From the NCBI GenBank assembly GCA_964618975.1, contig CAZUDI010000003.1, positions 61,962 through 125,961 on the forward strand: a DNA stretch of 64,000 nt. The letters are read 5' to 3'. The position numbers and the translations under genes are program-made. Positions 3,972 through 54,964 of this stretch are shown in pieces; the stretch's first letter is position 1, and the number at the start of each line of letters is the position of its first letter. The notes beneath the pieces were generated by a model. That model made no database searches. It saw only the letters and a list, made by a program, of their open reading frames with translations, and was not told the DNA's origin. The DNA is from an uncultured Bacteriovoracaceae bacterium (lineage in GTDB: Bacteria > Desulfobacterota > Desulfomonilia > UBA1062).

Positions 3972-4000
3972 TTGACAGCCGCCCGGGGCGTGTGTAAGGT
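3972..4000 (+). promoter_or_regulatory. sigma70-like promoter (TTGACA-N17-TAAGGT) for the GT2::kinase gene
   Basis: TTGACA at 3972-3977, a 17-nt spacer, TAAGGT at 3995-4000. It lies in the 106-bp divergent region between ATG 3901 (minus) and ATG 4008 (plus). Confidence 0.4.
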
Positions 4001-4007
4001 CTTGCGC

Positions 4008-5759
4008 ATGGCGGCAGGCAAGCAAATCGTCCATGATTTCCAACAGACCCCCGATGAATCCTCCCCTTTCGCCGAGCACCCTTCCCAGGTCAGCATCATC
4101 ATCGTGACCATGGGCGCAGACGCGATGCTCAAGGCCTGCATCCACTCGATTCAGGCCCGGGTAGACCTACCCCTCGAGATCATCATCGTCAACAACGCGG
4201 CCACCCCCCTGGATTTGGAGGACGCCCCCGCGCTCACAATCATCGAAAACGGCACCAATATGGGCTTTGCCCGCGCCGTGAACCGCGGCCTGGAGATGGC
4301 CGCCTCCCCTCTCGTGTGCCTGCTCAACTCGGACACGTACCTTACCGAGGACATCATCGCGCCCATGGTCGCCTTCATGCACACCCACGCGCGGGCCGGC
4401 ATCTGCGGGTTACAGCTGGTCTTCGGGGACGGCGCGCTGCAGAACTCCTTGGACATCTTCCCCAACCTGGCCACCGAGTTCCTCAACAAGTCCCTCCTGA
4501 AGCTCATCTTCCGCCGAAGCTACCCGAGCAAACGCTCGGGGTTCACGGCCCCGGTCAGGGTGCCCTCGGTGATCGGTGCCTGCATGATGATCAGACGCGC
4601 ACTCCTCGATACAATCGGGGACCTGGACGAGGGGTACTTCTTCTATCTCGAGGAGACCGACCTCTGCCGGCGGGCCTGGGACCATGGGTATGAGGTCTGG
4701 CACCTGCCGCAGCTGCGCCTCGTCCACTACCAGGGAGGCACAGCCCGCCGGAGCGATATCAGGCGCAAAATCGAGTTCCGCCGCTCGGTGATCACCTTCT
4801 TCCGGCGCCACAGGGGTCCGTTGCGGACCGCGCTGCTCGTCGCCCTCAGCGTCCTGAAGTCGCTCATCGAACTCGCAGGCGCCCTCCCGCTGGTCGTCAC
4901 AGAACGCGGAAGACAGCGCCTCATCACGGTCACGAGCCTGCTCCTCTGGTACCTGAGCGGCCGCCCCGAGGGCTGGGGACTGGAGCGCACCCACCCGCTC
5001 TACGAGAAGAGCAGGGCTCACGGCTACACCTGGTTTCTCAAACCCGGGAAAGACCTTCCCTCTCCGACGCGTGATCCGCAGGCCTTCATGGAGGGCTTAA
5101 GGTGCGTCCTCAATCTCTCGCGCACGGCCTGTGTGAAATCGGGACAGTTGGACGGAAAGACGATCTTCATCAAGCGCTACAACTTCAAGGGCTGGCGTGA
5201 TGCCTGCAAGAACCTTTTCCGCAAAAGCCGCGCGCTCAGGGCCTTCGAGTCGGCCCTCCTGCTCGAGAACCTGGGGGTCCCCACCCCGGCGGTGGTCTTC
5301 GCCTGTGAAAGGCGGATCCTGGGGGTGCTCGTGGTATCCTATATCGCCACCGAGGGGATCGACGCCCTGGACCTGGTGCGCCATCAGGCGCGGCACGGCT
5401 TCACGGATGACGATATCCGCAGGCTTGCCCGCTGCATGCGACGCCTGCATGAGATGGGCATCCTGCACGTGGACCTCAAGGGAGAAAATCTGCTCATCGA
5501 CGATAAGCACACCATCCACCTCATCGATCTCGATCGCCTGCGGCGGGTGCGCCATTTGGGGCTGAAGGCGCGTGCCAAGAACCTGAGTTACCTGAACGCC
5601 TCCTTCGCCACCACCCTGCCAGGGGAGATGCGAGCGCTGTTCCTCGACGAATACCTCAAAGGGCACACGGATCTGGAACGCCAACGTCCCCGCCTGGAGG
5701 CGCTCATCCACGGCCACACGCAGCATCGGCTGCGCACACGTTACCCTGCCCCTCAGTAG
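4008..5759 (+). CDS. fusion protein: family-2 glycosyltransferase (N-terminal) + LPS kinase (Kdo/WaaP family) domain (C-terminal)
   Basis: N-terminus 'VSIIIVTMGADAMLKACIHSIQ...EIIIVNNAATP' and 'CLLNSDTYL' (GT-A fold, GT2). C-terminus 'KRYNFKGWRDA...LHEMGILHVDLKGENLLIDDKHTIHLIDLD' is an LPS-kinase catalytic loop. Start taken at MAAGKQ (4008); the ORF is open from 3972. Confidence 0.7.
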   Translation: MAAGKQIVHDFQQTPDESSPFAEHPSQVSIIIVTMGADAMLKACIHSIQARVDLPLEIIIVNNAATPLDLEDAPALTIIENGTNMGFARAVNRGLEMAASPLVCLLNSDTYLTEDIIAPMVAFMHTHARAGICGLQLVFGDGALQNSLDIFPNLATEFLNKSLLKLIFRRSYPSKRSGFTAPVRVPSVIGACMMIRRALLDTIGDLDEGYFFYLEETDLCRRAWDHGYEVWHLPQLRLVHYQGGTARRSDIRRKIEFRRSVITFFRRHRGPLRTALLVALSVLKSLIELAGALPLVVTERGRQRLITVTSLLLWYLSGRPEGWGLERTHPLYEKSRAHGYTWFLKPGKDLPSPTRDPQAFMEGLRCVLNLSRTACVKSGQLDGKTIFIKRYNFKGWRDACKNLFRKSRALRAFESALLLENLGVPTPAVVFACERRILGVLVVSYIATEGIDALDLVRHQARHGFTDDDIRRLARCMRRLHEMGILHVDLKGENLLIDDKHTIHLIDLDRLRRVRHLGLKARAKNLSYLNASFATTLPGEMRALFLDEYLKGHTDLERQRPRLEALIHGHTQHRLRTRYPAPQ

Positions 5760-7949: not shown

Positions 7950-9041
7950 CTAGAAGATGAAGCGCCTCCAGGAGACGCTCAACACGATACCGATGCAGGC
8001 CATGTTCACCAGCATGAAGGAGCCGCCGTAACTGATGAACGGCAGGGGCACACCCACCACCGGGAAGACGCCGATGGCCATGGCGATGTTGATGAAGACA
8101 TGCAGGGTGAAGTACAAGGCGATGCCGAAACAGATCATGGCCCCGAAGCGGTCCTTGGCCTTGTTCCCGACAGAGATGATCTGGGTGATCATGATCAGGT
8201 AGAGCACGATCAGGACGAAGGAACCCACAAAGCCCCATTCCTCGGCCACCACGGAGAAGATGAAATCGGTGTGGTGTTCAGGCAGGAACTTGAGCTGGGT
8301 CTGGGTTCCGTGCAGGAAACCCTTGCCGATCAGGCCGCCGGAGCCCACGGCGATCTTGGACTGAATCGCATGGTAGCCGCTGCCCAGCGGGTCCTGGGAC
8401 GGGTTCAGAAAGGAGAGGATGCGCATGCGCTGGTAGTCCTTGAGCGAGAGCCAGCCGAACGGCAGCAGGGCCAGAACGAGGATGGCGGAGGTGACCAGCG
8501 TCGACTTCTTGATCCCCAGCAGCAGCAGCATGCTCATGGCAATGATCAGGATGATGCCGGCCGTGCCGAGGTCCGGCTCGGACAGGATCAGCAGAACCGG
8601 GACGGCGACGGCCGCCATGGGACGGATCAGCTCCCGCAGGCCGTGCTCCTGGATATGTTTGTAACGCGCCCCCCAGTGGGCCAGCCAGACAATGATGATG
8701 ACCTTGGTGAGTTCCGAGGGCTGGATCCCCAGCGGGCCGAGGGAAAGCCAGCGCCGTGCGCCCGAGATCTCGCGCCCCATACCCAGCACGACCACGAGCA
8801 GCACCACGGCCAAGACATAAAGCGGCCAGGCGAATCGGGTGAGCAGGCGATAGTCGATCACGAAACTCACGAACATCACGAGAAGGCCCAGGCCTACCCA
8901 AAGGAGTTGCTTGAAAAAGATCGCACTGTCGGTGACCCGGGTGGAGCTGTAGAGACACAACAGACCGATGGCGACGATACTCATGACCGTGGTGATCAGT
9001 CCCCAGTCGATGTTATCGATTACCTTCGAATATCTGCTCAT
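7950..9041 (-). CDS. rodA: peptidoglycan glycosyltransferase RodA (SEDS family)
   Basis: 363 aa, 10 predicted TM helices. 'YSKVIDNIDWGLI' N-terminus and 'PFISYGGSFMLVNMACIGIVLSV' C-terminus are typical of FtsW/RodA. Follows mrdA in the operon. Confidence 0.9.
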   Translation of the reverse strand: MSRYSKVIDNIDWGLITTVMSIVAIGLLCLYSSTRVTDSAIFFKQLLWVGLGLLVMFVSFVIDYRLLTRFAWPLYVLAVVLLVVVLGMGREISGARRWLSLGPLGIQPSELTKVIIIVWLAHWGARYKHIQEHGLRELIRPMAAVAVPVLLILSEPDLGTAGIILIIAMSMLLLLGIKKSTLVTSAILVLALLPFGWLSLKDYQRMRILSFLNPSQDPLGSGYHAIQSKIAVGSGGLIGKGFLHGTQTQLKFLPEHHTDFIFSVVAEEWGFVGSFVLIVLYLIMITQIISVGNKAKDRFGAMICFGIALYFTLHVFINIAMAIGVFPVVGVPLPFISYGGSFMLVNMACIGIVLSVSWRRFIF

Positions 9042-10836
9042 CCGAGATCCCCTTCAGGAAATAATACCCCTTGATCACGTCCCTGACAATCGGCGCGGCG
9101 ATGGACCCGCCGTGCCCGCCGTGCTCCACCACCGCCACCACGAGGATCTCCGGGCTCTCCACCGGCGAGAAACCGAAAAACCAGGCGTGGTCTCGTACCT
9201 TGTACGGCAAATCGGACTCGTCCATGAGCTTCGAGGAATAACCCCGGGCCACCTGTGCCGTCCCGGTCTTGCCGCCCACCGAGAACATGGGGTCGCGGAT
9301 GCCCCGGCCGGTGCCGTACTCACCCTCCACCACGGCGCGCAGGGCCTCCTTGATGGCGTCCAGGTCCCCGGGGGCCACCTCCAGCCTGCGCTCCAGTCGC
9401 AACGGAGAGGATAGGATCAGACGCGGGGTGTAGACATACCCCCCGTTCACCACGCTGCTCATGGCCTTGGCCACCTGCAGCGGGGTCACAAGCGTGAATC
9501 CCTGCCCGATGGCGGTGATGATCGTCTCACCGGGATGCCACGGCTTGCCGAAGCGCCGCAGCTTCCATTCGCGGCTGGGGATGAGCCCCGAGACCTCATC
9601 GGCGAGCTCGATACCGGTGGGATGTCCGAAACCCAGTTCGGATGCCACGCGCGTGATGGTGTCGATCCCCACTTCCTCGCCGAGTTGGTAGAAATAGCTG
9701 TCGCATGATTCGGCCAGGGCCTTCTTGAGGGATACCTCCCCGTGACCGGTGGGCTTCCAGCAACGATAGGTGTTGGTTCCGAGCGTATAGGCCCCTGAAC
9801 AGTAATAGGCCTTCTGGGGGGTGATCACATTCGCCCCCAGGCCCGCCAGGGCCACCGCCACCTTGAAGATCGACCCCGGAGGATACTGCCCCCTCAGCGC
9901 CCGGTTCTCCAGGGGGTGCAGGGGGTCCTCGATGACCTGCCGCCACATCTCCGGGGCCATGGGGGTCAAAAACATGTTGGGATCGAACTGGGGGCCGCTG
10001 GTCAGGGCGAGGATCTCGCCCGTCCGGGGGGAGATGGCCACCACGGCCCCGGCCCTCTCGCCCAGGGAATCCTGGGCGATGACCTGCAGCGAGCGGTCGA
10101 TGGTCAGCCGCACTTCCTCTCCCGGCACCGGGGTGTGCTCCGAGAGCACCTTGATCTTGCGGCCGATGGCGTCCACCTCGAAGATACGAATCCCCTTGGT
10201 GCCTTTGAGCCGCGTCTCACAGGCACGCTCCATCCCGTTCTTGCCCTCGAGATCACCCGGGGCATATTCTCCGTCCGAGGCCTGTTTGAGGGTCTCCCGC
10301 GACACCTCGCCCAGGAATCCCAGACAGTGGGAGGCCAACTCCTTGTATACGTAATCCCGCTCGGTGGAGGCCTCGATGGAGACCCCGGGCAGGTTGAAGA
10401 TCTCGGATTCGATGCGGGCCATCTCCACGAAGGTGATGTCGCGTGCGAGATAGACCGGGTCGTACGGTCGGGAGAGACCCGTGACAATCTTCTGTCGGAT
10501 CTCCTTGGTATCCTGCTCCAGCAGAGTGGCCAGGCGGGTAGCGATGGAATCCGGGTCGGCGATATCCTTGGGCATCACCGTGAGGTTGTATGCCGGGCGG
10601 TTATCCGCCAGAACGACCCCGTGGCGGTCCAGGATCTTGCCACGCGGCGCCTTGAGGCTGACGATGCGGATGCGGTTGTTCTGGGCGAGCCCCTCATAGT
10701 AGCCCCCCTTGAAGATCTGCATATGGACCAGTCGCATCACGAGTGAGAGCAGGAGGATAAAAACCAGCAGGGTGATGAAACGCGCGCGCAGTCGCAGTTC
10801 CTCGTCCAACTCCGGTCCGGTGATCTTAGGGTTCAT
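9013..10836 (-). CDS. mrdA: penicillin-binding protein 2 (peptidoglycan D,D-transpeptidase MrdA)
   Basis: Start set at MNPKITGPELDEELRLRARFITLLVFILL (ATG 10836), overlapping the mreD stop. Has the transpeptidase motifs SIFK (SxxK), 'SCDSYFY' and the 'KTGTAQ' (KTG) box. Confidence 0.9.
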   Translation of the reverse strand: MNPKITGPELDEELRLRARFITLLVFILLLSLVMRLVHMQIFKGGYYEGLAQNNRIRIVSLKAPRGKILDRHGVVLADNRPAYNLTVMPKDIADPDSIATRLATLLEQDTKEIRQKIVTGLSRPYDPVYLARDITFVEMARIESEIFNLPGVSIEASTERDYVYKELASHCLGFLGEVSRETLKQASDGEYAPGDLEGKNGMERACETRLKGTKGIRIFEVDAIGRKIKVLSEHTPVPGEEVRLTIDRSLQVIAQDSLGERAGAVVAISPRTGEILALTSGPQFDPNMFLTPMAPEMWRQVIEDPLHPLENRALRGQYPPGSIFKVAVALAGLGANVITPQKAYYCSGAYTLGTNTYRCWKPTGHGEVSLKKALAESCDSYFYQLGEEVGIDTITRVASELGFGHPTGIELADEVSGLIPSREWKLRRFGKPWHPGETIITAIGQGFTLVTPLQVAKAMSSVVNGGYVYTPRLILSSPLRLERRLEVAPGDLDAIKEALRAVVEGEYGTGRGIRDPMFSVGGKTGTAQVARGYSSKLMDESDLPYKVRDHAWFFGFSPVESPEILVVAVVEHGGHGGSIAAPIVRDVIKGYYFLKGISDEQIFEGNR

Positions 10837-11285
10837 AGGCCACCCTGATAAGGCCCACGAGTCCCACCAGAAGCGGGGTGGCCAGGCCTGTGAGCACGGC
10901 ACTGAGCAGAAAGGCGGGCAGGCCATGCGCCAGGGGTACGACGTCGGCAAAGAAGGCGGCGGTAAGGACAATCATGACATACAGCCCCAAGCCCACCACC
11001 CCCTGGGCCAGGGTATTTTCGAGATAGATGAGGTTGCGCAGAAAATCGGCCAGGAGGTAGGACAGGACATACACGAAGGGGAAATACCCCAGCCTGGCTC
11101 CCGTGAATGCCTGCAGGATCACGGAGCAAGCTAGCACGAACAGGAAGCCCCGGGCAAAGGGACGGTAGATAATCACGCCCAGGACCATCCCCAGGAAGAG
11201 ATCAACCCTCAAGGCCGGTAGCATCAGGGGTAACAGCGTCGCCTCGAGCAGCACGACCACTACGAAGACACCGGCCAGGATCGCT

Positions 11286-11299
<14 letters not shown>
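10826..11299 (-). CDS. mreD: rod shape-determining protein MreD
   Basis: 157 aa polytopic membrane protein immediately downstream of mreC, in the conserved mreBCD order. Confidence 0.8.
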
Positions 11300-13153
<1,854 letters not shown>

Positions 13154-13268
13154 TCAATGAGGTATGTGTCTTCCACATTTATCAAATACCCATTTCTTTT
13201 ACAAGCAACTATCTGGTAAACCCTCATTATTGCGAAAATATCCTTCTTGTGATATCGAGGCAGGCACC

Positions 13269-14228
13269 ATGCAGAACACCATCAGTATCATACTGGCCGC
13301 CGGAAAGGGAACGCGGATGAAGTCCGCCCTCCCTAAAGTTCTCCATGAGATCCTGGGGTTGCCGCTCATATACTACCCCATTACCCTGGCTGAGGCCTTC
13401 AGCAACGTGGTGGCGGTGGTGGTGGGCCACGGTCGGGAGCAGGTGGAAGAGAGGCTTTTACCCTTTCAGGTTCGCACCGTGGTTCAGGATCCCCCCCTCG
13501 GCACGGGACATGCCGTGCTGCAGGCCCGGGATATCCTGTGTGAGTGCCCCTTTGAGAACGTCATCGTCCTGCCCGGCGACATGCCACTCGTCGACAAGGC
13601 CTCCCTTAAGGGGCTCATCGACCTTCAGACCTCTTCTCACGCCGCCCTGGGCGTCCTGACCGCCACCCTCGACGACCCTACTGGCTACGGCCGCATCCTT
13701 CGGGATCAAGACGGCCGGGTGCGGGCCATCGTGGAACACAGCGAGGCCAGTCAGGAGGAGCGCTCCATCCGCGAGATCAACACCGGGGTCTATGTCATCC
13801 GCCGCGACTTCCTGCTCGAGGCCGCTTCGCGCCTGGCGCCGGACAATACCAAGGGTGAATTCTACCTGACGGATATCGTCGCCATGGCGCCCGACGCCGT
13901 CGGGTTCCCCATGGCCGACGCCGAAGGTGCGCATGGCATCAACTCCCAGGCCCAGCTCGCCTGGGCGGCCGGAATCATGCAGCAGCGCATCAACCGCGCC
14001 CATATGGATGAGGGACTTACCCTCATAGACCCGCACACAACCTGGATCAGCCCCCTGACACGCCTCGGACGTGACGTGACCGTCTGGCCCAACGTCCACA
14101 TCCTGGGTGAAAGCGTGGTCGGGGATCACGTCACCATCCTTCCCAACACCTGGATCAGGGACGCCTGCATCGCCAGCGGCCGCAGCGTCCCCCCCGGAAG
14201 CATCATCGAGGGTAAATCTGCCGTCTAA
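13269..14228 (+). CDS. GlmU-like sugar-1-phosphate nucleotidyltransferase with a truncated left-handed beta-helix (320 aa)
   Basis: 'IILAAGKGTRMKSALPKVLH' is the GlmU uridyltransferase signature. The pyrophosphorylase domain is complete, but only about 3 hexapeptide turns remain before the stop at 14228, and no acetyltransferase-domain continuation exists in any frame before lon. Confidence 0.65.
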   Translation: MQNTISIILAAGKGTRMKSALPKVLHEILGLPLIYYPITLAEAFSNVVAVVVGHGREQVEERLLPFQVRTVVQDPPLGTGHAVLQARDILCECPFENVIVLPGDMPLVDKASLKGLIDLQTSSHAALGVLTATLDDPTGYGRILRDQDGRVRAIVEHSEASQEERSIREINTGVYVIRRDFLLEAASRLAPDNTKGEFYLTDIVAMAPDAVGFPMADAEGAHGINSQAQLAWAAGIMQQRINRAHMDEGLTLIDPHTTWISPLTRLGRDVTVWPNVHILGESVVGDHVTILPNTWIRDACIASGRSVPPGSIIEGKSAV

Positions 14229-14309
14229 GGCGCCCGGCGAACCACTGGCGTCATCTCCGCCGCCCGGAGATGGATTGACAACCCAGGCCGCTTCACCTAC
14301 AAGAAAGGC

Positions 14310-16739
14310 ATGGGCTGGATCAAAAACCTGTTCTATCAGAGTGGCGACCTGCAAGGCGATGTAGTACAAGCGGAGAGCTTCCCCTCCATCCTTCCGGTCC
14401 TGCCGCTCAAGGACGCCATCCTGATGCCCGAGGCCATCCTGCCTCTGATCGTGTCCCACCCCTCATCCATCGATCTCATCCGGTCATTCCACAAACGCGG
14501 CGAGGCCATCATCGCCGTGGGCATGCGTGAGCCCAAGGACATTCATCGCGCCACTTGGGACAACCTCCACCGTGTGGGGTGTGTGGCCAGGATTACCAAG
14601 ATTACCGAGGACGACAGCGGGGAGCTCTCCATCATGATCAAGGGCATCCGCAAGGCCGCGCTCGAGGAGATGCTCTCCGAGGATCCCTACCTGCGGGCAC
14701 GGGTGACCTACCTCAGTGAAGACCTGTCCCTGAACAAGCACGTGCTCGCCACGGCCCACTCCACCCGCGAACTCCTCAACCAGCTGGCGCGCCTGTCCTA
14801 CCACAACATGGACCCCATCCTGGCCAATCTCGCCAAGATCAAGGACCCGCTCATCCTCTTCAGCACCTGCGCCACGACCCTGCCCATCCCCGTGCGCCGC
14901 AAGCAGGAGATCCTGGAGACCGAGCCCCTGCAGCAAAAGTTCACCATGCTCTACCTCGCCCTCAAGGAGGAGCTCGACATCCTCGAGCTCTCCACCCGCA
15001 TCACGGAGACCGCCAAGGACGAAATCAGCCATGCGCAGCGCGAGTATTACCTGAGGCAGCAGCTCAAGGCCATCAAGAAGGAACTCGGGGAAGGCGCGGA
15101 TCCTGACAGCGAGATGGAGGATCTGGAAAAGGAGCTCAAGGACAAGGCTCTCCCGGACGAGGTGACCACCGACGTACAGAAGGACCTCAAGCGCATCGCC
15201 CGCATGCAGCCCGGATCCTCTGAATATGTCACTATCCGCACCTACTTGGACTGGATCCTCGACCTCCCCTGGCACGAGCAGACCGAGGACAACCTCGAAA
15301 TCGCCGCCGTCGAGGAGATCCTCAACGAAGACCACTTCGACCTCGCGCGTCCCAAAAAACGCATCCTGGAGTTCCTGGCAGTCAAGAAACTCAAGGGCGA
15401 CCTCAAGGGCCCCATCCTGTGCTTCGTGGGCCCCCCCGGGGTGGGCAAGACCTCGCTCGGCAAGTCCATCGCCCGCGCCATGGGCCGCACCTTCGTGCGC
15501 ATCTCGCTGGGCGGCGTGAGAGACGAGGCCGAGATCAGGGGCCACCGGCGCACCTATATCGGCGCCATGCCGGGCCGCATCATCAACGGCATCAAACAGG
15601 CCCAGACCATAAATCCGGTCTTCATGCTGGACGAGATCGACAAACTCACCCAGGACATCCACGGGGACCCGGCCTCGGCCCTGCTCGAGGCCCTGGACCC
15701 GGAACAGAACAACAAGTTCGTCGATCACTACCTCAACGTCCCCTACGACCTCTCGGCGGTCTTCTTCATCACCACCGCCAACGTGGTCGACAACATCCCG
15801 CCGGCCCTCAGGGACCGGCTCGAGATCGTGGAAATCGAGGGCTACACCCAGGAGGACAAGCTCCAGATCGCCCGGGAATACCTCATCCCCAAGGAGCTCC
15901 GGGCCAACGGCCTGGATGAGACCCCCGTCACCTTCCGCGATGAGGCCGTCACCCACATCATCCGGCACTATACACGCGAATCCGGTGTGCGCAACCTCCA
16001 GCGCGAAATCGCCTCGGTCCTGCGGGTGATCGCCTCCCGCGTCGCCCGACAGGGCCCCTCCCCCTTCGAGATCGACCGGGAGTTCATCGAGGAGGCCCTG
16101 GGGGCGGTGCGTTTCATCCCCGAGGTCAAGGAGCGCACCCGCATCCCGGGCATCGCCACCGGGCTGGCCTGGACCCCCTACGGGGGCGAGATCCTCTTCG
16201 TGGAAAGCGCCCTGGTCCAGGCCAAGGAGGAGATGATCCTCACCGGACAGATGGGCGACGTCATGAAGGAATCCGCCCGCATCGCGCTCAGCCTGATCAA
16301 GGGCACCGCCTGCGGCCTCAGTGAGAAGGCGTCTCTCCACATCCATGTCCCGGCCGGCGCCATCCCCAAGGACGGCCCCTCGGCCGGGGTCACCATGGTG
16401 ACCTCCCTCGTCTCGCTCCTGACCGGCCAGGTGGTACGGGAGAACCTCGCCATGACCGGGGAGATCACCCTCAGAGGCGTGGTGCTGCCCGTGGGCGGGA
16501 TCAAGGAGAAGGTCCTCGCCGCCCGGCGCGCCGGCATCACCGAGGTGATCCTGCCCCGCATGAACGAAAAGGACCTGCGTGACATCGAATCAGACGCCCG
16601 GCGGGATCTCACGGTGCATTTCGTGGAGGGGATCGACGAGGTACTGCACCTGGCCTTCCCGCAGGCCACCGACAGGCTCCTGACCCTCATCCCCCTGGTA
16701 CCCCACCCCCCCGACAAGGGGATCGGCCTCAGAGCGTAG
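14310..16739 (+). CDS. lon: ATP-dependent protease Lon
   Basis: 809 aa with a LON N-terminal domain, Walker A 'GPPGVGKTS', and the protease motif 'PKDGPSAGVTMVTSLVSLL' carrying the catalytic Ser. Confidence 0.95.
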   Translation: MGWIKNLFYQSGDLQGDVVQAESFPSILPVLPLKDAILMPEAILPLIVSHPSSIDLIRSFHKRGEAIIAVGMREPKDIHRATWDNLHRVGCVARITKITEDDSGELSIMIKGIRKAALEEMLSEDPYLRARVTYLSEDLSLNKHVLATAHSTRELLNQLARLSYHNMDPILANLAKIKDPLILFSTCATTLPIPVRRKQEILETEPLQQKFTMLYLALKEELDILELSTRITETAKDEISHAQREYYLRQQLKAIKKELGEGADPDSEMEDLEKELKDKALPDEVTTDVQKDLKRIARMQPGSSEYVTIRTYLDWILDLPWHEQTEDNLEIAAVEEILNEDHFDLARPKKRILEFLAVKKLKGDLKGPILCFVGPPGVGKTSLGKSIARAMGRTFVRISLGGVRDEAEIRGHRRTYIGAMPGRIINGIKQAQTINPVFMLDEIDKLTQDIHGDPASALLEALDPEQNNKFVDHYLNVPYDLSAVFFITTANVVDNIPPALRDRLEIVEIEGYTQEDKLQIAREYLIPKELRANGLDETPVTFRDEAVTHIIRHYTRESGVRNLQREIASVLRVIASRVARQGPSPFEIDREFIEEALGAVRFIPEVKERTRIPGIATGLAWTPYGGEILFVESALVQAKEEMILTGQMGDVMKESARIALSLIKGTACGLSEKASLHIHVPAGAIPKDGPSAGVTMVTSLVSLLTGQVVRENLAMTGEITLRGVVLPVGGIKEKVLAARRAGITEVILPRMNEKDLRDIESDARRDLTVHFVEGIDEVLHLAFPQATDRLLTLIPLVPHPPDKGIGLRA

Positions 16740-18586: not shown

Positions 18587-19036
18587 TCAGCGCGCCTCGG
18601 GCGCGGTCCCCTCGCAGAGGGCCAGCCAGGCCTGCTCGTCAGAGACGCGGTTGATGTGCAGACCGATTTCCATGGTCCCCGGCTCGACACGGATGATGTC
18701 GGCCCACAGGGTGAGGAGCTGGTCTTCCAGCTCGACCACCACCGCCTTGCCCACCAGTCCGCGAACCAGGGAGGGGGTGAGGCTTCCCCTGGTCTCGAAG
18801 GCCGTGCCCACCACCCGGACCATGAACCCCCGGCTGGAGATGTTGAGTGTATCCACCAGACCGTAGATCTGGCGGCTGGACTGCCGGATGCGGGCGGACA
18901 GATCTGTGAAATGCAGGCTGATGCGGATCCGCGCCGGCAGTCTGGTCTCCCGGCGCGGATAGGTCCTGCGCTCCGGATGCGATCCCCTGGCATCCTCAGG
19001 CGCCCCCACCCTTTCCCTCGGCTCCCTATCCTGCAT
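18587..19036 (-). CDS. stand-alone PilZ domain protein (c-di-GMP receptor)
   Basis: 'RRETRLPARIRIS' (the RxxxR motif) and 'DTLNISSRGFMV' (the D/NxSxxG motif). GGGAGGGG RBS is upstream. Confidence 0.7.
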   Translation of the reverse strand: MQDREPRERVGAPEDARGSHPERRTYPRRETRLPARIRISLHFTDLSARIRQSSRQIYGLVDTLNISSRGFMVRVVGTAFETRGSLTPSLVRGLVGKAVVVELEDQLLTLWADIIRVEPGTMEIGLHINRVSDEQAWLALCEGTAPEAR

Positions 19037-19060
19037 GGATCCCCTCCCGTCTGCGGTTCT

Positions 19061-19483
19061 TCATTTCCGTCTGCGCCGCCACTCCTTGGGAAAGATGCTG
19101 ATGCCCTCCTGGTGCTCGTCACACAACCTTTTCCAGGCGTGCACATCGGACACCCGTTGGATGATGACGCCGAACTCCAGCGCCCTTTGCTCCACCCGGA
19201 CGATCTCGCCCCACAGCGTAACGCCCTCCCCGTCGAACTCCACCATGATCGGGCACCCCATGAGTTTCTGGCTATCCCCCGGGGCGAAGCTCTGGGCACC
19301 GGAAACAAGCGATCCATCGATCATGAGGCCCAGTCCGCCGATGCTTATGTTCACCGTCTCCACCAGGGCGCGGATCTCCTTGACGGCGGACCTGACCTTG
19401 GAGAACTGGTCCTCGAAGAGGCTGATGCGGATCTGACCCGGCAGGCGCGTGCTGATACGGTGGAATCGTCGTCTCTCGTCCAT
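19061..19483 (-). CDS. stand-alone PilZ domain protein (paralogue)
   Basis: 'RRRFHRISTRLPGQIRIS' and 'ETVNISIGGLGL' are the same PilZ motifs. Tandem with the previous gene. Confidence 0.7.
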   Translation of the reverse strand: MDERRRFHRISTRLPGQIRISLFEDQFSKVRSAVKEIRALVETVNISIGGLGLMIDGSLVSGAQSFAPGDSQKLMGCPIMVEFDGEGVTLWGEIVRVEQRALEFGVIIQRVSDVHAWKRLCDEHQEGISIFPKEWRRRRK

Positions 19484-19536: not shown

Positions 19537-20568
19537 TTATTGCTGCGGGGCGCTCTCCGGCAGGACGACCATGAATGAATCCCATGCATAAAGCCGGTCT
19601 TCCCGCCGGCGAGCCGTGACAATGATACGATTGACCTTGCGGGTCAGCGCGATGGGACCCTCGCTGCTGAGAACCCCGGTCTCGGGATCGAACACCGCCG
19701 GCAGCCGCCCCCTCTCGGAGAGGAACATCTGGACCTGTCCTGACAGGTAGAGATGGGGATTGGCGAGGGTCAGGCGAATGTGTTCCAGGGTCCCTGAGGT
19801 GAGTCTGCCGTACGCCGGCTCCCGACGGACGATCATCAGCGGCGGGCTTATCAGCTTGGCGACGAAGGTATCCATCGTGATGTCCCGGCCCACGATGGCC
19901 TGTCGGGGGACCCGGCCGGGTTCGGCCCAGCCCCCTGTGTTTCCAGGGTCCGAGGTGAGCCCGAGCGTATAGCCCAGGTGGGATACGGCCTCCAGCACAC
20001 TGCCATCGTATTCCCCGAAGGGATAGGAAAACCATCGCACCGCATGCCCCAGGCCCTGTTCCAGGATCTCCTTCGAGAGCCTCATCTCGCGCACAGCCTC
20101 GCTCTGAGAAATATTCACCAGGCGGGGGTGGGTATGCGAATGGGAGCCAACCTCCCCCTTGTGCCGCTCCATCTCGCGCAACTGATCCCAGCTGACGAAA
20201 TGCTTTTCCCCGATCGCACGGGTGAAGACAAAGACCGAGAACGGATAGTCATAGGCCTTCAACACGGGAAAGGCCTTTTCATAGACCGAGCGATATCCGT
20301 CATCGATGGTGATGACCACCCCTCGGGAAGGCATCGCCTGCCGGCCGCAGAGTATGTCTTCCAGCTCTCTCAGGCAAAGCACCCGATAGTCATGCTCTTT
20401 AAGGTAGGCCATCTGGCGGGAGAATTCGGCGCTGGAGATCGAAGTGGAGGGGGAGTCCGCCTCGTCGAACTTGTGGTACAGCAGCACGCTGACATGGGCC
20501 TCGGCCGCAGCGCCCCCCCCCAGGAAAAAGATCATTACCGCCATAAGGATCTGCCGTACGTGCTTCAT
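19537..20568 (-). CDS. secreted polysaccharide deacetylase (NodB-homology, CE4 family)
   Basis: Signal peptide, then 'VLLYHKF', 'ITIDDGYRSVYEKAFPVLKAYDYPFSVFV' and an HxxxxH-type motif typical of CE4 deacetylases. Confidence 0.75.
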   Translation of the reverse strand: MKHVRQILMAVMIFFLGGGAAAEAHVSVLLYHKFDEADSPSTSISSAEFSRQMAYLKEHDYRVLCLRELEDILCGRQAMPSRGVVITIDDGYRSVYEKAFPVLKAYDYPFSVFVFTRAIGEKHFVSWDQLREMERHKGEVGSHSHTHPRLVNISQSEAVREMRLSKEILEQGLGHAVRWFSYPFGEYDGSVLEAVSHLGYTLGLTSDPGNTGGWAEPGRVPRQAIVGRDITMDTFVAKLISPPLMIVRREPAYGRLTSGTLEHIRLTLANPHLYLSGQVQMFLSERGRLPAVFDPETGVLSSEGPIALTRKVNRIIVTARRREDRLYAWDSFMVVLPESAPQQ

Positions 20569-20633
20569 GGCGCCCCCCTGGTTTTCATATCATGTAGGGT
20601 ATAATTGTGAAACCCACCCGATGGAATAGCGCC

Positions 20634-21452
20634 TCAGAAAACGGCGTCGGAGCGGGCCGGTGCAGGGCCGGGGAGCTCGAGGACACAGTCGTCATAGGCC
20701 GTGAGGTCGTTGTACCGGATGATACGCCGGAGCCTCTCCACATAGGCCGGGCCCGATTCGGAATAGGAGCTCAACGCCTGGGCCAGGACCAGGGCATCGG
20801 TTGGCTGGCCGGTTGACCCTCTGAGCTCCCGCAAGGCCGCATACGCCGGGTGTGTGTTGATGGTCCAGAGGTAGTAGTCGATGTTGGACTGCAGGTCCTT
20901 GAAGACCGAGACGCGAAAGACCCTCCCGGGGGCCTGGGCCTGCGGTACCATCCCCTCGCCCTCCGGGGTACGCAGGCCGAAGAGATTGTTGCCGTACCGC
21001 GCAAAGCGCGAACTCCCCCAGCCCGATTCGATGGCGGCCTGGGCGATGACCAGCGACACCGGCAGGGTGTCCACGCGCAAGAGCAACTCCGCCAGCATAC
21101 CTCGATATCCCTCTTCTTCCACACGATAGGTGCGGGCGAGGGCCATCAGCGTCTGCTTTTCCTTCTTTGTCAGCCACCAGGCACGGGCATCGATACGCTC
21201 CAGCATTTCGCGCTGGAAACGGACCTCGGCGTTCGACTTCAGTACCAGCGGCAGCAACACCTTAATGAACCGCTCCTTCCTGCGGCTTACGACCTGCATG
21301 GTCTCCAGATCCTCCGGCAGGCACTCGGAATACACGTAGGCCACCCGCACCGGCGCGTTAACGCGCTCCGAATCGGGAAGGAATCCCGGGAGTAGCACCC
21401 CCACGACACTCGCCAGCAGGACTCCCAGAACAATATATTCGCTCTTCTTCAA
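20634..21452 (-). CDS. glucosaminidase-domain protein (Bax / FlgJ C-terminal-type peptidoglycan hydrolase)
   Basis: N-terminal TM/signal segment and 'AQAAIESGWGSSRFARYGNNLFGL', the hallmark of PF01832 mannosyl-glycoprotein endo-beta-N-acetylglucosaminidase. Confidence 0.75.
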   Translation of the reverse strand: MKKSEYIVLGVLLASVVGVLLPGFLPDSERVNAPVRVAYVYSECLPEDLETMQVVSRRKERFIKVLLPLVLKSNAEVRFQREMLERIDARAWWLTKKEKQTLMALARTYRVEEEGYRGMLAELLLRVDTLPVSLVIAQAAIESGWGSSRFARYGNNLFGLRTPEGEGMVPQAQAPGRVFRVSVFKDLQSNIDYYLWTINTHPAYAALRELRGSTGQPTDALVLAQALSSYSESGPAYVERLRRIIRYNDLTAYDDCVLELPGPAPARSDAVF

Positions 21453-21631: not shown

Positions 21632-22789
21632 ATGAGGATCGGCATACTCACGGGCGGGGGTGATGTTCCCGGATTGAATCCCTGTATCAAGGCATTGGTC
21701 TGGCGGGCCGTGGAAGAGGGGCACGCGGTTATCGGCATCCGCCGGGGCTGGGCCGGGCTCCTCAACTACAACCTGGACCTCGGACTTCAGGAAAACGCCC
21801 GCAACGTAATCCCGCTCGACAAGGGTGCGGTGCGTACGGTAGACCGGACCGGGGGGACCTTTCTGCACACCTCGCGCACCAACCCCTCGAGCGTGAAGGC
21901 CGGGGAGGTGCCCGGCTTCCTCTCTACGCGCCGCGCGCAAGACGCCACACAGAAGGTCGACCTCACCGATCATGTACTCAAGGTGGTCGAGGCCCTGGGA
22001 ATCGATGTCCTGGTTCCCATCGGGGGGGACGACACCCAGAGCTTCGGGGAACGGCTGCACCGCGAGGGCGTGCATACAATCGCGATTCCCAAGACCATGG
22101 ACAACGACGTCTTCGGCACGGACTACTGTATTGGCTTCTCCACGGCGGTCTCGCTCAGTACGCACTACATCCAGACCCTGCGGACCACAGCGGGCTCCCA
22201 CGAACGCATCGCCGTGATCGAGCTCTTCGGCCGCAACTCGGGGGAGACCTCCCTCATGGTCGCCTACCTGGCGGCGGTGGACCGCGCCATCATCTCGGAG
22301 GTTCCCTTCGAACCCACGAAGCTCTCCGAGCTCATCATGCAGGACAAACGCTCCAATCCCAGCAACTATGCCATGCTCACCATCTCGGAGGGTGCCCGGA
22401 TCATCGGGGGCGAGTGCATCGAGACCGGCGAGCAGGATGCCTACGGCCACCGCAAGCTCGGTGGAATCGGGCAGATCACCCGTGAGCGCCTCAAAGAGAT
22501 CACCGGCCAGGAGATCCTCTACCAGCAGATAGGATACCTCATGCGCAGCGGCGCCCCGGACTCGGTGGACCTCATGGTAGGTTTCAATTTCGCCCACCTG
22601 GCGGTCGAGCTCATCAACAAGGCGGTCTTCGGGCGGATGCTCGCCATCCAGAAAGGTGTGTACACCCACATCCCCTACAGCATGATCACCGGGGGGGTGA
22701 AACGGGTGAATGTGGATGAATTCTACGATATGGACCAGTACCGCCCCAATATCCGCAGCCTCGAAGGCAAGCCTCTCTTTCTCTACTAG
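21632..22789 (+). CDS. pfk: 6-phosphofructokinase, probable pyrophosphate-dependent type
   Basis: '[16 protein letters not shown]', and 'PIGGDDTQ' plus 'PKTMDNDV' instead of GGDGS/PGTIDND. These Asp/Lys substitutions are the established PPi-PFK signature. Confidence 0.85.
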
Positions 22790-45679: not shown

Positions 45680-46690
45680 ATGCGTTTGAGCGAGCTGGCA
45701 TATTCCGTCGCGGGCCGCCTGCGGGGCGAGGATCGCGAGATCACCGGGGCCTCGACCCTCGAGGAGGCCCAGAGGGGTGACATCACCTTCCTGGCCAATC
45801 CGCGCTACAAGGCCCAGGCCCTCAAGACCTCCGCCGGGGCGATCCTCGTGTCCGAGGAGCTTGACAGCCCCATATCCCAGGTCATCGTGGGCAACCCCTA
45901 TCTGGCCTTTGCCGAGGTCCTCGACCGGCTCTACCCCCCCCGGGAACACCCTGCCGGGATCGCGAAGGAGGCCTGCGTGGCGCCGAGCGCCCGCGTGGAC
46001 AGGGGTGCCAGCATCGGTGCGCACGTCTTCATCGGTGCAGACGCCCACATCGGGGAAGACTGCATCATCTATCCGGGATGTTTTATCGGTGACGGGGTGC
46101 GCATCGGGAAGGAGTGTGTGCTGTACCCCCAGGTGGTGGTGTATGACGGCTGTCTGATCGGGAGCTCCTGCATCATCCATGCCGGCAGCGTCATCGGCTC
46201 GGACGGGTTCGGTTTCACCTGGGACGGCCAGCGTCACCGCAAGATCCGCCAGAAGGGCATCGTGGTCCTCGGCGACGGGGTCGAGATCGGCAGCAACTGT
46301 ACCATCGACCGCGCCGCACTCACGCGCACAATCGTGGGCACGGACGTCAAGACCGACAACCTCGTGCACATCGGCCACAACGTCGTGGTGGGGGATCACA
46401 CCCTCATCGTGGCGCAGAGCGGAATCGCCGGCAGCGCCCGCATCGGCAACCACGTCACCCTGGCTGGACAGTGCGGGGTCATCGGACACATCACTATCGG
46501 GGATTACTGCGTGGCCGCCTCGCGCGCGGGCATCACCGCGGATCTCAAACCCGGCAGCATCGTCTCCGGTTATCCGGCAATCGACCACAAGCAGTGGCTG
46601 CGGGTGCAGAAGGTGTACAAGGAGCTCCCCGAGCTCCTCCGACGCGTGCGCGAGTTGGAAAGGAGACTGGATGTCCACGGTGACGATTGA
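45680..46690 (+). CDS. lpxD: UDP-3-O-acylglucosamine N-acyltransferase
   Basis: LpxD N-terminal domain ('ITGASTLEEAQRGDITFLANPRYK') followed by left-handed beta-helix hexapeptide repeats. Conserved position after skp. Confidence 0.9.
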   Translation: MRLSELAYSVAGRLRGEDREITGASTLEEAQRGDITFLANPRYKAQALKTSAGAILVSEELDSPISQVIVGNPYLAFAEVLDRLYPPREHPAGIAKEACVAPSARVDRGASIGAHVFIGADAHIGEDCIIYPGCFIGDGVRIGKECVLYPQVVVYDGCLIGSSCIIHAGSVIGSDGFGFTWDGQRHRKIRQKGIVVLGDGVEIGSNCTIDRAALTRTIVGTDVKTDNLVHIGHNVVVGDHTLIVAQSGIAGSARIGNHVTLAGQCGVIGHITIGDYCVAASRAGITADLKPGSIVSGYPAIDHKQWLRVQKVYKELPELLRRVRELERRLDVHGDD

Positions 46691-47453
46691 TCCCACGGCC
46701 TGTGTCTCACCCCGGGCCGAGCTGGAAACGGGCGTGCGCGTGGGGCCCTACAGCGTCATCGAGGACGAGGTCCACATCGGTGCCGGCACCTTTATCGGCC
46801 CCCACTGCCTGATCCAGGGTCCCTCCCGCATCGGAGCCCAGTGCACCTTCACGGGCTACGCCAGCATCGGCACCCCCCCTCAGGACCACAGCTACCGGGG
46901 GGAGAAGACCTCCCTGGTCATGGGCGACCACAACACCGTGCGCGAGTTCGCGACCATCAACCGCGGGACCCTCAAGGACAAGGGGATCACCCGCGTGGGC
47001 AGCGGCAACCTCATCATGGCCTATGCGCACGTGGCCCACGACTGCATCGTGGAGGACCACATCGTGATGGGCAACCTCGCCACCCTGGCGGGGCACGCCC
47101 AGGTGGGCCACCACGCCATCATCGGGGGGCTCTCCGCCGTGCACCAGTTCACCCGGATAGGCGCCTATGCCATCCTCGGCGGCGGTTCCATGGTGAGCCT
47201 CGACATCGTCCCCTTTGCCAAGGCCTCGGGCAATCGCGCGCGGCTCTTCGGGCTCAACTCCATCGGCCTCAAACGCAACGGCTTTACCCCCGAAGCGGTC
47301 CGCGACCTGCGGCAGGCCTTCCGCCTGCTCTTCCAGAAGGGCCTGCTGCTCGCCGAGGCCCTGTCCCTCCTTAGCAGCACCTTTCCCGACTCCGAACACA
47401 TCGCCCATCTGATCGACTTTATCGAGTGCTCAAAGCGGGGGATCGCCCGATGA
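46671..47453 (+). CDS. lpxA: acyl-ACP--UDP-N-acetylglucosamine O-acyltransferase
   Basis: Start at MSTVTIDPTA (ATG 46671) after GGAAAGGAG. 'IDPTACVSPRAELETGVRVGPYSVIEDEVHIGAGTFIGPH' is the canonical LpxA LbH N-terminus. Overlaps the lpxD 3' end by 20 nt. Confidence 0.9.
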   Translation: MSTVTIDPTACVSPRAELETGVRVGPYSVIEDEVHIGAGTFIGPHCLIQGPSRIGAQCTFTGYASIGTPPQDHSYRGEKTSLVMGDHNTVREFATINRGTLKDKGITRVGSGNLIMAYAHVAHDCIVEDHIVMGNLATLAGHAQVGHHAIIGGLSAVHQFTRIGAYAILGGGSMVSLDIVPFAKASGNRARLFGLNSIGLKRNGFTPEAVRDLRQAFRLLFQKGLLLAEALSLLSSTFPDSEHIAHLIDFIECSKRGIAR

Positions 47454-48376
47454 AGCGCATCCGTGTCGCCGTGATCGGCGTGGGCTATCTCGGCCGCTTC
47501 CATGCCCAGAAATACGCTGGTCTTGAGACCGTCGACCTCGTAGGCGTGGTCGACATCGACGCCCGGCGCGCCCAGGCCGTCGCCTATGAGGTGGGTTGCC
47601 CAGCCTTCAGCCGGATCGAGGAAATCAGAGAAGGCCTCGATGCGGTGAGCGTGGCGGTGCCCACCTCGGTGCACGCCGAGGTGGCCATCCCCCTGCTCGA
47701 GCAGGGTATCGCGGTGCTACTGGAAAAGCCCATGTCGGCCAGCATTGAAGAGGGCCGCCGCATCATCGCCGCCGCCAGGAGCGGCGGCGCCGTGCTCCAG
47801 GTGGGGCATCTCGAACGTTTCAATCCGGCGCTGCTGAGTCTCAAGGACCGCATCGATCGTCCCATGTTCATCGAGGCGCACCGTATCAGCCCCTTCCGCG
47901 AACGCGGCATCGACGTGGACGTGCTCTTGGACCTCATGATCCACGACATCGACATCATCCTCTCGCTCGTCAACTCTCCCATCACCTCGGTGGAGGCCGT
48001 GGGTGTCCCGGTGCTCACCCAGGAGGTGGACATTGCCAATGCCAGGCTGCGCTTCGAGAGCGGCTGTATCGCCAATGTGACGGCCAGCCGGGTCAGCGCC
48101 GATACCATGCGCAAGATCCGCATCTTCCAGCCGGACGCCTACATCTCCATCGACTATGCCAAACGCGCGGTGGATGTCTACACCCTGGGGGAGGGTCGGG
48201 AGATCCTGCACGATCACTTGAGCATCTCGGAGGCCGACGCCCTGCAGGCGGAGGTGCACGCCTTTGTCGAGGCCCTCCGAGGCAAGCTGTCCGTGGTGGT
48301 GGACGGCGAGGCCGGTCTTCGTGCCCTCGAGGTCGCCTACCGGATCAAGGACGCCATGATCATACCCGAACGATGA
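47450..48376 (+). CDS. Gfo/Idh/MocA-family NAD(P)-dependent oxidoreductase inserted between lpxA and lpxB (candidate UDP-GlcNAc 3-dehydrogenase, GnnA-like)
   Basis: 'IRVAVIGVGYLGRFHAQ' (Rossmann GxGxxG) and 'EKPMSASIEE' (the EKP motif of Gfo/Idh/MocA). ATGA overlap with the lpxA stop; runs to the lpxB start. Confidence 0.6.
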   Translation: MKRIRVAVIGVGYLGRFHAQKYAGLETVDLVGVVDIDARRAQAVAYEVGCPAFSRIEEIREGLDAVSVAVPTSVHAEVAIPLLEQGIAVLLEKPMSASIEEGRRIIAAARSGGAVLQVGHLERFNPALLSLKDRIDRPMFIEAHRISPFRERGIDVDVLLDLMIHDIDIILSLVNSPITSVEAVGVPVLTQEVDIANARLRFESGCIANVTASRVSADTMRKIRIFQPDAYISIDYAKRAVDVYTLGEGREILHDHLSISEADALQAEVHAFVEALRGKLSVVVDGEAGLRALEVAYRIKDAMIIPER

Positions 48377-49449
48377 AGAGCATCCTCATGACAGCCGGCG
48401 AGGCGAGTGCTGATCGGCACGCCGCGTGTGTAATCCGACAACTGAAAGCCACGCTTCCCGAGGTGGAGGTCTTCGGTATGGGCGGACCCGCGATGGTCCA
48501 GGCGGGCCTTAAGTGCCGCTACGGCATGGAGCACCTCAGTGTCATGGGCTTCTCGGATGTCCTTCCCCGCCTTAGCGACATCCTCGGCGTCTGGCGGGGC
48601 CTGCGCCGGATCATCCGCGAGGAGCGTCCGGACGTGTTCATCCCGGTGGACCTGCCGGATTTCAACATGCCCTTGGCCCGCTATGCCCGGCGCTACGGGG
48701 TGAAGGTGCTCTACTATATCGCGCCCCAGGCCTGGGCCTGGAGGAGGTACCGGGCGCGCACCCTGGCGCGCATCACCGACGGACTGGCGGTGATCTTTCC
48801 CTTCGAGGAGCCCTTCTTCGCCTCTTACGGGGTGAAGGCCCGCTACGTGGGGCACCCCATGCTCGAGGACGATCCCGACCCGTGGGAGGTCGCCTGGCCG
48901 CCAAGGCGCATCACCCTGCTGCCCGGCAGCCGGGCCCATGAGATCGAACGCATGCTGCCCGTGATGCTCACGGCCAAGCGCATTGTTCAGCGCCGCAGGC
49001 CAGGGCTGGCGTGGACGCTGCCCGTGGCCCCCGGCCTCGACGGGAGCTGGCTTGCAGGCCTGCTCGACGACGACGTCACACTGAGTGCCGCCATGGTCCC
49101 GGCGGATCTGGCCCTGGTCACCTCCGGTACCGCCACCCTGGAGATGGCCGTTCGCGGTGTCCCGCAGGTGATCTGCTACCGCACGTCACAGGCGAACTAC
49201 CGTCTGGCACGGGCCTTCGTACGGTTGGAGCATATCGGCATGCCCAATGTGATCCTGGGCCGGGAGGCCGTGCCCGAACTCATCCAGGAGCGGTGTACGG
49301 GAGAGGGTCTGGCCGGCGCCATGCTGCGCCTGCTGGAGGAGCGCGAGGAAGCTGAGCGCCAGTTTGCGGCCTATGCGCAGTTACGTAAGAATCTCGGAAA
49401 CAGGAAGGCCGCCCAAGGAGTCGCCACATGGATACGACAGATGCTCTAG
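48373..49449 (+). CDS. lpxB: lipid-A-disaccharide synthase
   Basis: 'ILMTAGEASADRHAA...VFGMGGPAM' N-terminus and a GT-B fold (glycosyltransferase family 19). Confidence 0.85.
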   Translation: MKSILMTAGEASADRHAACVIRQLKATLPEVEVFGMGGPAMVQAGLKCRYGMEHLSVMGFSDVLPRLSDILGVWRGLRRIIREERPDVFIPVDLPDFNMPLARYARRYGVKVLYYIAPQAWAWRRYRARTLARITDGLAVIFPFEEPFFASYGVKARYVGHPMLEDDPDPWEVAWPPRRITLLPGSRAHEIERMLPVMLTAKRIVQRRRPGLAWTLPVAPGLDGSWLAGLLDDDVTLSAAMVPADLALVTSGTATLEMAVRGVPQVICYRTSQANYRLARAFVRLEHIGMPNVILGREAVPELIQERCTGEGLAGAMLRLLEEREEAERQFAAYAQLRKNLGNRKAAQGVATWIRQML

Positions 49450-54889: not shown

Positions 54890-54964
54890 GGCGGCATAGC
54901 CAAGTGGTAAGGCGACGGTCTGCAAAACCGTTATTCACCGGTTCAAATCCGGTTGCCGCCTCCA
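54890..54964 (+). tRNA. tRNA-Cys (anticodon GCA)
   Basis: GGCGGCAtaGCCAAGTGGTAAGGCGACGGTCTGCAAAACCGttattcaCCGGTTCAAATCCGGTTGCCGCCtCCA shows a 7-bp acceptor stem, anticodon loop CT-GCA-AA, T-loop GGTTCAAATCC and an encoded CCA. Confidence 0.85.

Follow-up and report, generated by a model that had tools for sequence, protein, structure and literature searches.

Does a glmU gene that stops well before the usual length encode a working enzyme, and which of the GlmU activities would that enzyme retain? The question is raised by a locus on a 64,000-nucleotide stretch of DNA (hereafter the window) from an uncultured bacterium of the Desulfomonilia lineage UBA1062 (GenBank assembly GCA_964618975.1, contig CAZUDI010000003.1, positions 61,962 to 125,961 of the forward strand). 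GlmU is treated as a universally bifunctional and essential enzyme, and as an antibiotic target. Here, we describe the short glmU of the window and propose, with a probability of roughly 0.8, that its product is a functional monofunctional N-acetylglucosamine-1-phosphate (GlcNAc-1-P) uridylyltransferase, that is, a uridine diphosphate (UDP)-GlcNAc diphosphorylase (EC 2.7.7.23). Across an order-level uncultured lineage (Desulfomonilia / UBA1062 / Ca. Phosphitivorax), the gene is conserved in its short form, at a fixed locus and under purifying selection.

A GlmU cut before its acetyltransferase half

The gene and the parts of its product have the following positions.

13269-14228, forward strand: coding sequence of the short glmU, 319 codons plus TAA, ATG start
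13269-13946, forward strand: nucleotidyltransferase (pyrophosphorylase) domain, residues 1-226; Pfam NTP_transferase and NTP_transf_3; holds all GlmU uridyltransferase residues
13293-13319, forward strand: signature loop rich in glycine, LAAGKGTRM (residues 9-17); E. coli L11-M19 in the alignment
13947-14009, forward strand: long linker α-helix, residues 227-247, assigned by DSSP on the AlphaFold model with a predicted local distance difference test score (pLDDT) >93; counterpart of the helical arm seen in GlmU structures
14010-14225, forward strand: stub of the left-handed β-helix (LbH), about four coils, residues 248-319; Pfam Hexapep at 264-297; 12 short strands in the model

The start of all relatives, M-x3-(C/I)-x-IILAAGKGTR, falls at the same methionine as the ATG at 13269. 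Were translation to begin at the upstream ATG (13164), the protein would gain 35 residues, an extension that no homologue carries. The database record P0001 is an exact or near-exact copy of the window protein.

Eleven NCBIfam equivalog models of GlmU match the protein with E-values from 1e-94 to 1e-60, all under their cut-offs, and align only at positions 1 to about 320 of 430-488. The model NF010935 scores 316 bits (315.7; E=4e-94; cut-off 718), and TIGR01173 scores 303.8 bits (cut-off 366.85). The best sequence matches in the PDB are all GlmU, and the solved chains, which include the 331-residue E. coli construct 1FWY, match over residues 3 to about 317. Pfam places NTP_transferase/NTP_transf_3 at residues 6-203 and finds a single Hexapep match. 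A preliminary description of the locus had called the protein a GlmU homologue with a complete uridyltransferase domain and its signature. This assignment stands, as the motif LAAGKGTRMKS..PKVLH is located at residues 9-26 and the uridyltransferase residues are all kept. The loop pattern L-x2-G-x-G-T-x-M-x4-P-K is matched by the stretch LAAGKGTRMKSALPK.

In the alignment with E. coli GlmU (reference sequence from NC_000913), window residues R16, K23, Q73, G78, T79 and D104 correspond to E. coli R18, K25, Q76, G81, T82 and D105, and G141, E156, N171, E197 and N225 to G140, E154, N169, E195 and N227. These 11 uridyltransferase residues are invariant in the alignments A1 and A3. Further invariant columns, in E. 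coli numbering, are L11, A12, A13, G14, G16, P24 and D200. By the GlmU structure literature, the invariant residues form the glycine-rich loop, bind the metal and contact the uridine and the GlcNAc, and they include the two basic residues that bind phosphate.

The acetyltransferase site of GlmU is presumably built from R333, E349, K351, H363, Y366, N377, N386, K392 and S405, with acetyl-coenzyme A (acetyl-CoA) contacts up to R440; the E. coli residue identities at the listed positions were confirmed against the sequence. The window protein terminates at E. coli position 321, and its clade members end at 333-342, where their end coincides with the GP(F/Y)ARLRPG motif of GlmU. Therefore, the residues from R333 to R440 have no counterpart in the window protein, which settles the question, raised in the preliminary description, of whether the acetyl-CoA site residues are absent. 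In place of a full LbH of about ten coils (E. coli ~252-456) with its C-terminal arm, the protein has about four coils only. The β-helix is thus truncated as first described, although the initial count of about three turns is too low by the AlphaFold model. The absence of remaining LbH coding sequence before lon, likewise noted earlier, is borne out by the 81-nt spacer that separates the two genes: it encodes no hexapeptide repeat in its three forward frames, and tblastn with five GlmU C-terminal domains finds no match in it. The locus thus holds an intact and conserved gene for a GlmU-type pyrophosphorylase domain that lacks the acetyltransferase region.

Predicted structure

The AlphaFold2 model of the short GlmU monomer has a mean pLDDT of 93.9 and a predicted template modelling score (pTM) of 0.90. 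It is composed of a Rossmann-like domain, the long helix 227-247, and 12 short strands that form the LbH coils. The top Foldseek matches in the PDB are exclusively GlmU structures. The closest is the engineered E. coli construct GlmU-Tr331 (1FWY_B), with a template modelling (TM) score of 0.92 when normalised to the query and 0.91 when normalised to the target, and a root-mean-square deviation (rmsd) of 1.7 Å. It is the sole match that spans both partners end to end; full-length GlmUs reach target-normalised TM scores of 0.55-0.66.

GlmU-Tr331 is trimeric, and the retained LbH stub of the short GlmU may likewise serve as a trimerisation module only. The stub positions DP..WI.P, IWP and WI are conserved across the clade. 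A structural role of the stub fits because the stub is both conserved and under purifying selection. GlmU-Tr331 has been described as having GlcNAc-1-P uridyltransferase activity only, and did not replace the acetyltransferase fragment in vivo (PMC4358021).

Conservation of the short form and of its locus

A search of 5.8 billion protein clusters gave, among the matches listed, about 88 clusters at 48-60% identity to the window protein, all of them short (308-342 aa). Full-length GlmUs (447-480 aa) appear in the same search only at ≤46% identity. The database versions of 308-320 aa are start-codon miscalls; the DNA encodes a complete N-terminus with an ATG. Such miscalled entries (P0032, P0038, P0041, P0047, P0053, P0065, P0071 and others, 308-316 aa; loci L013 and L025) begin with MHEILG... 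and hence lack the catalytic LAAGKGTR loop.

Genomes were scanned with a clade-specific alignment (A2) of the linker helix and stub. The short gene was found in at least 39 GTDB species representatives, all metagenome-assembled genomes (MAGs), with an open reading frame (ORF) of 324-342 aa in each. The carriers are labelled Deltaproteobacteria, Desulfomonilia, Syntrophaceae UBA1062/UBA6087 or Thermodesulfobacteriota, and include 'Deltaproteobacteria bacterium Phox-21' (Ca. Phosphitivorax). The other 41 loci of the scan, from Tissierellia, Rhodospirillaceae, Chloroflexota and others, provide a positive control: they encode GlmUs of 426-464 aa, with matches to the C-terminal domain at E=1e-30 to 1e-50. 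The preliminary description had allowed that this length might be the norm for GlmU in the clade, with the acetyltransferase residues retained; the short form is the norm, and those residues are not retained.

The surroundings of the gene in the window are as follows.

7950-13135, reverse strand: rodA-pbp2-mreD-mreC-mreB cell-elongation operon, divergent neighbour; Pfam FTSW_RODA_SPOVE, PBP_dimer/Transpeptidase, MreC and MreB_Mbl on orthologous neighbours
13136-13268, no strand: divergent intergenic region between mreB and the short glmU, 133 nt, only weak promoter-like matches
14229-14309, forward strand: 81-nt spacer from the short glmU to lon, no LbH coding remnant and no terminator-like site
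14310-16739, forward strand: lon protease gene, conserved downstream neighbour, identified as an ORF; Pfam Lon domains on orthologous neighbours

The placement beside the mreB-rodA operon is as first described, with the short glmU divergent to mreB-mreC-mreD-pbp2-rodA, and relatives keep the divergent layout. The gene order is common to seven contigs from independent assemblies, with proteins that share 49-60% identity with that of the window: rodA-pbp2-mreD-mreC-mreB, the divergent short glmU, lon, and then hemL and an AsnC/NirD-like gene on the opposite strand. The spacer between the short glmU and lon is 31-168 nt long in the relatives. A promoter and terminator scan around the short glmU of the window found nothing above chance, and no terminator-like site before lon. 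With the spacer this short and no such site within it, the short glmU and lon might be co-transcribed.

The median ratio of nonsynonymous to synonymous substitution rates (dN/dS), calculated by the Nei-Gojobori method from 63 pairs with dS <2, is 0.18 over the whole gene; taken separately, the catalytic domain gives 0.15 and the LbH stub 0.28. The reading frame is intact at every locus in this set.

Proposed function and its alternatives

The short GlmU would convert GlcNAc-1-P and uridine triphosphate (UTP) to UDP-GlcNAc, which would feed peptidoglycan and lipid A, while GlcNAc-1-P would be supplied by something encoded elsewhere. Both the activity and the substrate are predicted from residue conservation and from the behaviour of the E. 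coli construct. A uridyltransferase-only enzyme was one of the readings offered in the preliminary description, and it is the one favoured by the conserved uridyltransferase residues, the missing acetyltransferase residues, and a model co-extensive with GlmU-Tr331.

Several observations weigh against a monofunctional GlcNAc-1-P uridylyltransferase. The C-terminus of the window protein is 12-21 residues shorter than those of all clade relatives (331-342 aa; L001-L049), its last coil is incomplete, and it lacks the conserved clade tail ...P-Y-(S/T)-x-I, the counterpart of the GlmU motif GPFARLRPG (region 14190-14228). In-frame read-through past the window stop codon gives no similarity to this tail. 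The E. coli residue Y103, located near the sugar, is replaced by proline; the position varies among bona fide full-length GlmUs as well. Finally, the 64-kb window yielded no acetyltransferase candidate, nor did the 10 kb around the gene in the at least 39 relatives.

The alternative that survives best, which we regard as possible but rather unlikely, is that the short glmU is an auxiliary uridyltransferase gene beside a full-length glmU elsewhere in the genome. Its product would boost or separately regulate the second step, perhaps together with cell elongation, like NagU beside GlmU in S. aureus. The enzymology would be that of the monofunctional uridylyltransferase proposed here, and the physiological role alone would differ. 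Species with a full-length GlmU plus separate truncated domains are reported in a 2026 preprint, which makes the case that the rate limit set by the GlmU second step can be relieved by a separate uridyltransferase (Walker laboratory, bioRxiv 10.64898/2026.06.23.733835). The position of the gene next to the mreB-rodA operon in all relatives also agrees with such a role. However, no second GlmU-like sequence is present in the window or in about 780 kb of the relatives' flanks, and it would have to be explained separately why at least 39 species keep a redundant gene under purifying selection (dN/dS 0.18).

It is improbable that the enzyme acts on another sugar phosphate, either as a MurU-like N-acetylmuramic acid-1-phosphate uridylyltransferase in wall recycling or as an enzyme of the RmlA or GalU type. 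Wall recycling would suit the location beside peptidoglycan elongation genes, as would the genes for a polysaccharide deacetylase and a glucosaminidase a few genes downstream, and the proline in place of Y103 could indicate a different sugar. The comparison of profile models, proposed together with the MurU-like reading in the preliminary description, does not favour that reading. The MurU model (NF045761) reaches 26.5 bits against a cut-off of 250, and only over residues 7-106, and RmlA (TIGR01207) and GalU (TIGR01099) reach 28.9 of 360.65 and 28.5 of 326.8 bits, whereas GlmU models reach 304-316. The GlcNAc-contacting residues T82, G140, E154, N169, E195 and N227 are all kept. MurU and RmlA presumably have neither the linker helix nor the LbH stub.

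Two other candidate identities were rejected. A further sugar-1-phosphate nucleotidyltransferase model of the RmlA/GalU type, TIGR01208, scores 54.1 bits against a cut-off of 320.25. The archaeal-type bifunctional nucleotidylyltransferase/acetyltransferase (TIGR03992, ST0452-like) scores 97.4 against 292.1 bits, and ST0452 itself superimposes by Foldseek with a TM score of 0.60 and an rmsd of about 9 Å.

A decaying glmU remnant that has lost its 3' half, the second reading of the preliminary description, is very improbable: the gene has 70% of the normal GlmU length and scores under the curated equivalog cut-offs, but its architecture and end point are shared by about 88 protein clusters and by at least 39 species, in which the locus is fixed, dN/dS is 0.15 in the catalytic part and 0.28 in the stub, the catalytic residues are invariant, every frame is intact, no C-terminal remnants lie downstream, and the fold is predicted with high confidence. 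The chance of a sequencing, assembly or frameshift artefact of a full-length glmU is negligible, even though the source is a metagenome, frameshifts occur, and one relative (P0049, 399 aa) has an apparently frameshifted tail: lon begins 81 nt past the stop codon and leaves no room for about 135 further codons, an independent ENA assembly of the same organism (L006) has the identical stop codon with one residue different (A318D), and more than 39 genomes from different projects agree. The pseudogene and the artefact are excluded because the short form is clade-wide, held at a fixed locus and under purifying selection.

Source of GlcNAc-1-P

A monofunctional uridylyltransferase would depend on GlcNAc-1-P made by another enzyme. 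Tblastn of five GlmU C-terminal domains and four full-length GlmUs against the window returned only lpxD and lpxA as LbH matches, and Pfam found neither a GCN5-related N-acetyltransferase (GNAT) nor a hexapeptide acetyltransferase in its 20 unassigned ORFs. A rough gene map of the window has no glmS or glmM. In 39 GTDB loci and seven other contigs, the 10-kb flanks of the short glmU contain no GlmU-C-like sequence, and the supplementary tables of the Ca. Phosphitivorax MAG papers contain no glmU rows. Rosetta-stone fusions among long GlmU-like representatives involve only an aspartyl protease and Sua5/YrdC, and are uninformative. The fusions are P0142 (749 aa), with an N-terminal aspartyl protease, and P0171 (781 aa), in which a Sua5/YciO/YrdC domain is C-terminal; either could be a merged gene call.

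Among the possible sources of GlcNAc-1-P, we rank a stand-alone GlmU-C-like acetyltransferase first, at well under even odds. A second full-length GlmU comes next and is doubtful. A non-homologous route, such as acetylation of glucosamine-6-phosphate (GlcN-6-P) by a GNAT followed by a mutase, is less likely again, and salvage or another source is the least likely of these.

We speculate that the whole lineage could lack a GlmU-type glucosamine-1-phosphate (GlcN-1-P) acetyltransferase, whether fused or stand-alone, and obtain GlcNAc-1-P by a route undescribed in such bacteria, which we consider an unlikely though tenable possibility. Such a route might use a GNAT on GlcN-6-P and a mutase, in the eukaryote-like step order, acetylation at the UDP-sugar level, or a new enzyme. 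If so, the textbook GlmS-GlmM-GlmU pathway would be rewired across an entire order of free-living syntrophs, and the clade would be a clean comparative-genomics handle on the 'unidentified acetyltransferase' postulated in the 2026 preprint.

The lpxD and lpxA genes belong to a lipid A cluster with the order bamA-skp-lpxD-lpxA-oxidoreductase-lpxB-msbA. lpxD (45680-46690) and lpxA (46671-47453) overlap by 20 nt, with no fabZ in between, and a GFO/IDH/MocA oxidoreductase gene (47426-48376) is inserted between lpxA and lpxB (48373-49449). The oxidoreductase may act as a GnnA-like UDP-GlcNAc 3-dehydrogenase, in which case the lipid A would contain a diamino sugar.

Other features of the window

Downstream of lon, on the reverse strand at 19537-21452, a polysaccharide deacetylase (Polysacc_deac_1) is paired with a glucosaminidase-domain protein. 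Several relatives keep the pair, again a few genes downstream of their short glmU (L001, 15250-17066; L007, 15369-17305), and in the window it is followed by a PFK-family phosphofructokinase (21632-22789). Two tandem small ORFs of 149 and 140 aa on the reverse strand (18587-19483) have similar N-termini, ...RRxxxRxxxxLPxxIRISL; one has a sub-threshold PilZ match (E=5e-4, 20.9 versus 22.5 bits), and the other is without a Pfam match.

A 595-aa fusion on the forward strand (3972-5759) is composed of a family-2 glycosyltransferase (residues 41-215) and a 3-deoxy-D-manno-octulosonic acid (Kdo)/WaaP-type lipopolysaccharide kinase (391-546), and adjoins a family-9 heptosyltransferase (1318-2295). 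The only Rfam match in the window is a tRNA at 54890-54961 on the forward strand (72 bits), which shares a few bases with the predicted beginning of an omptin/porin-like ORF (54953-55915).

Annotation and significance

The proteins P0005, P0006, P0008 and others are named 'bifunctional ... GlmU' in IMG, and 'NTP transferase domain-containing protein' or 'sugar phosphate nucleotidyltransferase' by NCBI. The IMG name over-annotates them because the acetyltransferase part is absent, and pathway reconstructions would therefore wrongly credit EC 2.3.1.157.

Truncated or monofunctional GlmUs have already been reported in other phyla, and the short glmU adds a case of a known phenomenon. Exceptions to the bifunctional GlmU are only now being catalogued: GlmUCc of the Bacteroidetes was reported in 2015, and the 2026 preprint describes NagU together with truncated GlmUs. 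The present case adds an order-level, free-living, Gram-negative lineage that includes the phosphite-oxidising, syntrophic Ca. Phosphitivorax and offers at least 39 species for comparison; its uncultured carriers are sediment and digester bacteria. The comparison set could serve to find the missing N-acetylation step by phylogenetic profiling.

Comparison with known systems

Bifunctional GlmU (TIGR01173 / NF010935; KEGG K04042) is homologous to the short GlmU over the first 320 residues, with 34-46% identity and the same uridyltransferase site. In contrast to it, the short GlmU lacks about 135 C-terminal residues, which hold about six LbH coils, the acetyl-CoA and GlcN-1-P site, and the C-terminal arm. 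We take the KEGG group K11528 to be that of the monofunctional pyrophosphorylase. K11528 stands as a separate orthologue group beside K04042 (PMC5814848). MurU (NF045761) shares the nucleotidyltransferase fold and the G-x-G-T-R loop with the short GlmU, but is a single domain of about 225 aa (profile length 226), whereas the short GlmU has the additional helix and LbH.

Short GlmUs also occur outside the clade. A separate natural truncation, P0120 (347 aa; L009, 3634-4677; JGI Ga0130016_10012596), ends near E. coli position 350. Its gene lies in the contig interior, in the Firmicutes-type spoVG-glmU-prs-ctc-pth position, 113 nt before prs, and the protein resembles the full-length P0089 (458 aa) of a Coriobacteriaceae bacterium. 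P0098, P0104, P0109 and P0115 (348-374 aa) look like further cases of this kind. In an exhaustive search of 1.84 billion representatives (50%-identity clusters), 74 of the 150 best matches (P0121-P0269) are ≤365 aa long. The NYDG acetyltransferase motif is present in none of these 74, as against 54 of 67 long representatives, and the short ones are interspersed with full-length GlmUs on a tree of the N-terminal domain. The 74 short representatives (305-365 aa, with evenly spread ends) may be common truncated GlmUs or contig-end fragments that escaped clustering, and our argument does not rely on them.

N-terminal-only, C-terminal-only and split GlmUs have been described among NagU-carrying species, with Polystyrenella longa Pla110_45300 (N-only) and Wujia chipingensis (split) as examples, and the authors state that the N-only cases must have an acetyltransferase yet to be identified (10.64898/2026.06.23.733835). 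Compared by their description, these truncated GlmUs represent the same phenomenon as the short GlmU, a uridyltransferase half alone. The reported cases are only among NagU carriers of the Planctomycetota, the PVC group and the Clostridia; the preprint is silent on Desulfomonilia and Thermodesulfobacteriota.

GlmUCc (Ccan_15070) of Capnocytophaga canimorsus was shown by experiment to be a monofunctional GlcNAc-1-P uridyltransferase, and has orthologues in 30 of 45 Bacteroidetes genera (PMC4358021). It has 27% similarity to the closest bifunctional GlmU, and its host is a GlcNAc auxotroph that also lacks GlmM (PMC4358021). The short GlmU is like GlmUCc, whose host is a bacterium without a GlmU acetyltransferase, in being a uridyltransferase, although for the short GlmU the activity is predicted. 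Unlike the distant GlmUCc, it is a close GlmU derivative with 43-46% identity to full-length GlmUs.

GlmU-Tr331 (1FWY, 1FXJ) has the same composition as the short GlmU, a pyrophosphorylase domain, a linker helix and the first LbH coils, with 34% identity and all uridyltransferase residues in common. The two differ in that the window protein ends 10 residues sooner, at E. coli position 321, and in that the clade has a four-residue deletion near E. coli 226-229 and clade-specific tryptophans in the stub. GlmU-Tr331 is an engineered laboratory construct, whereas the short GlmU is the natural, conserved state of its lineage.

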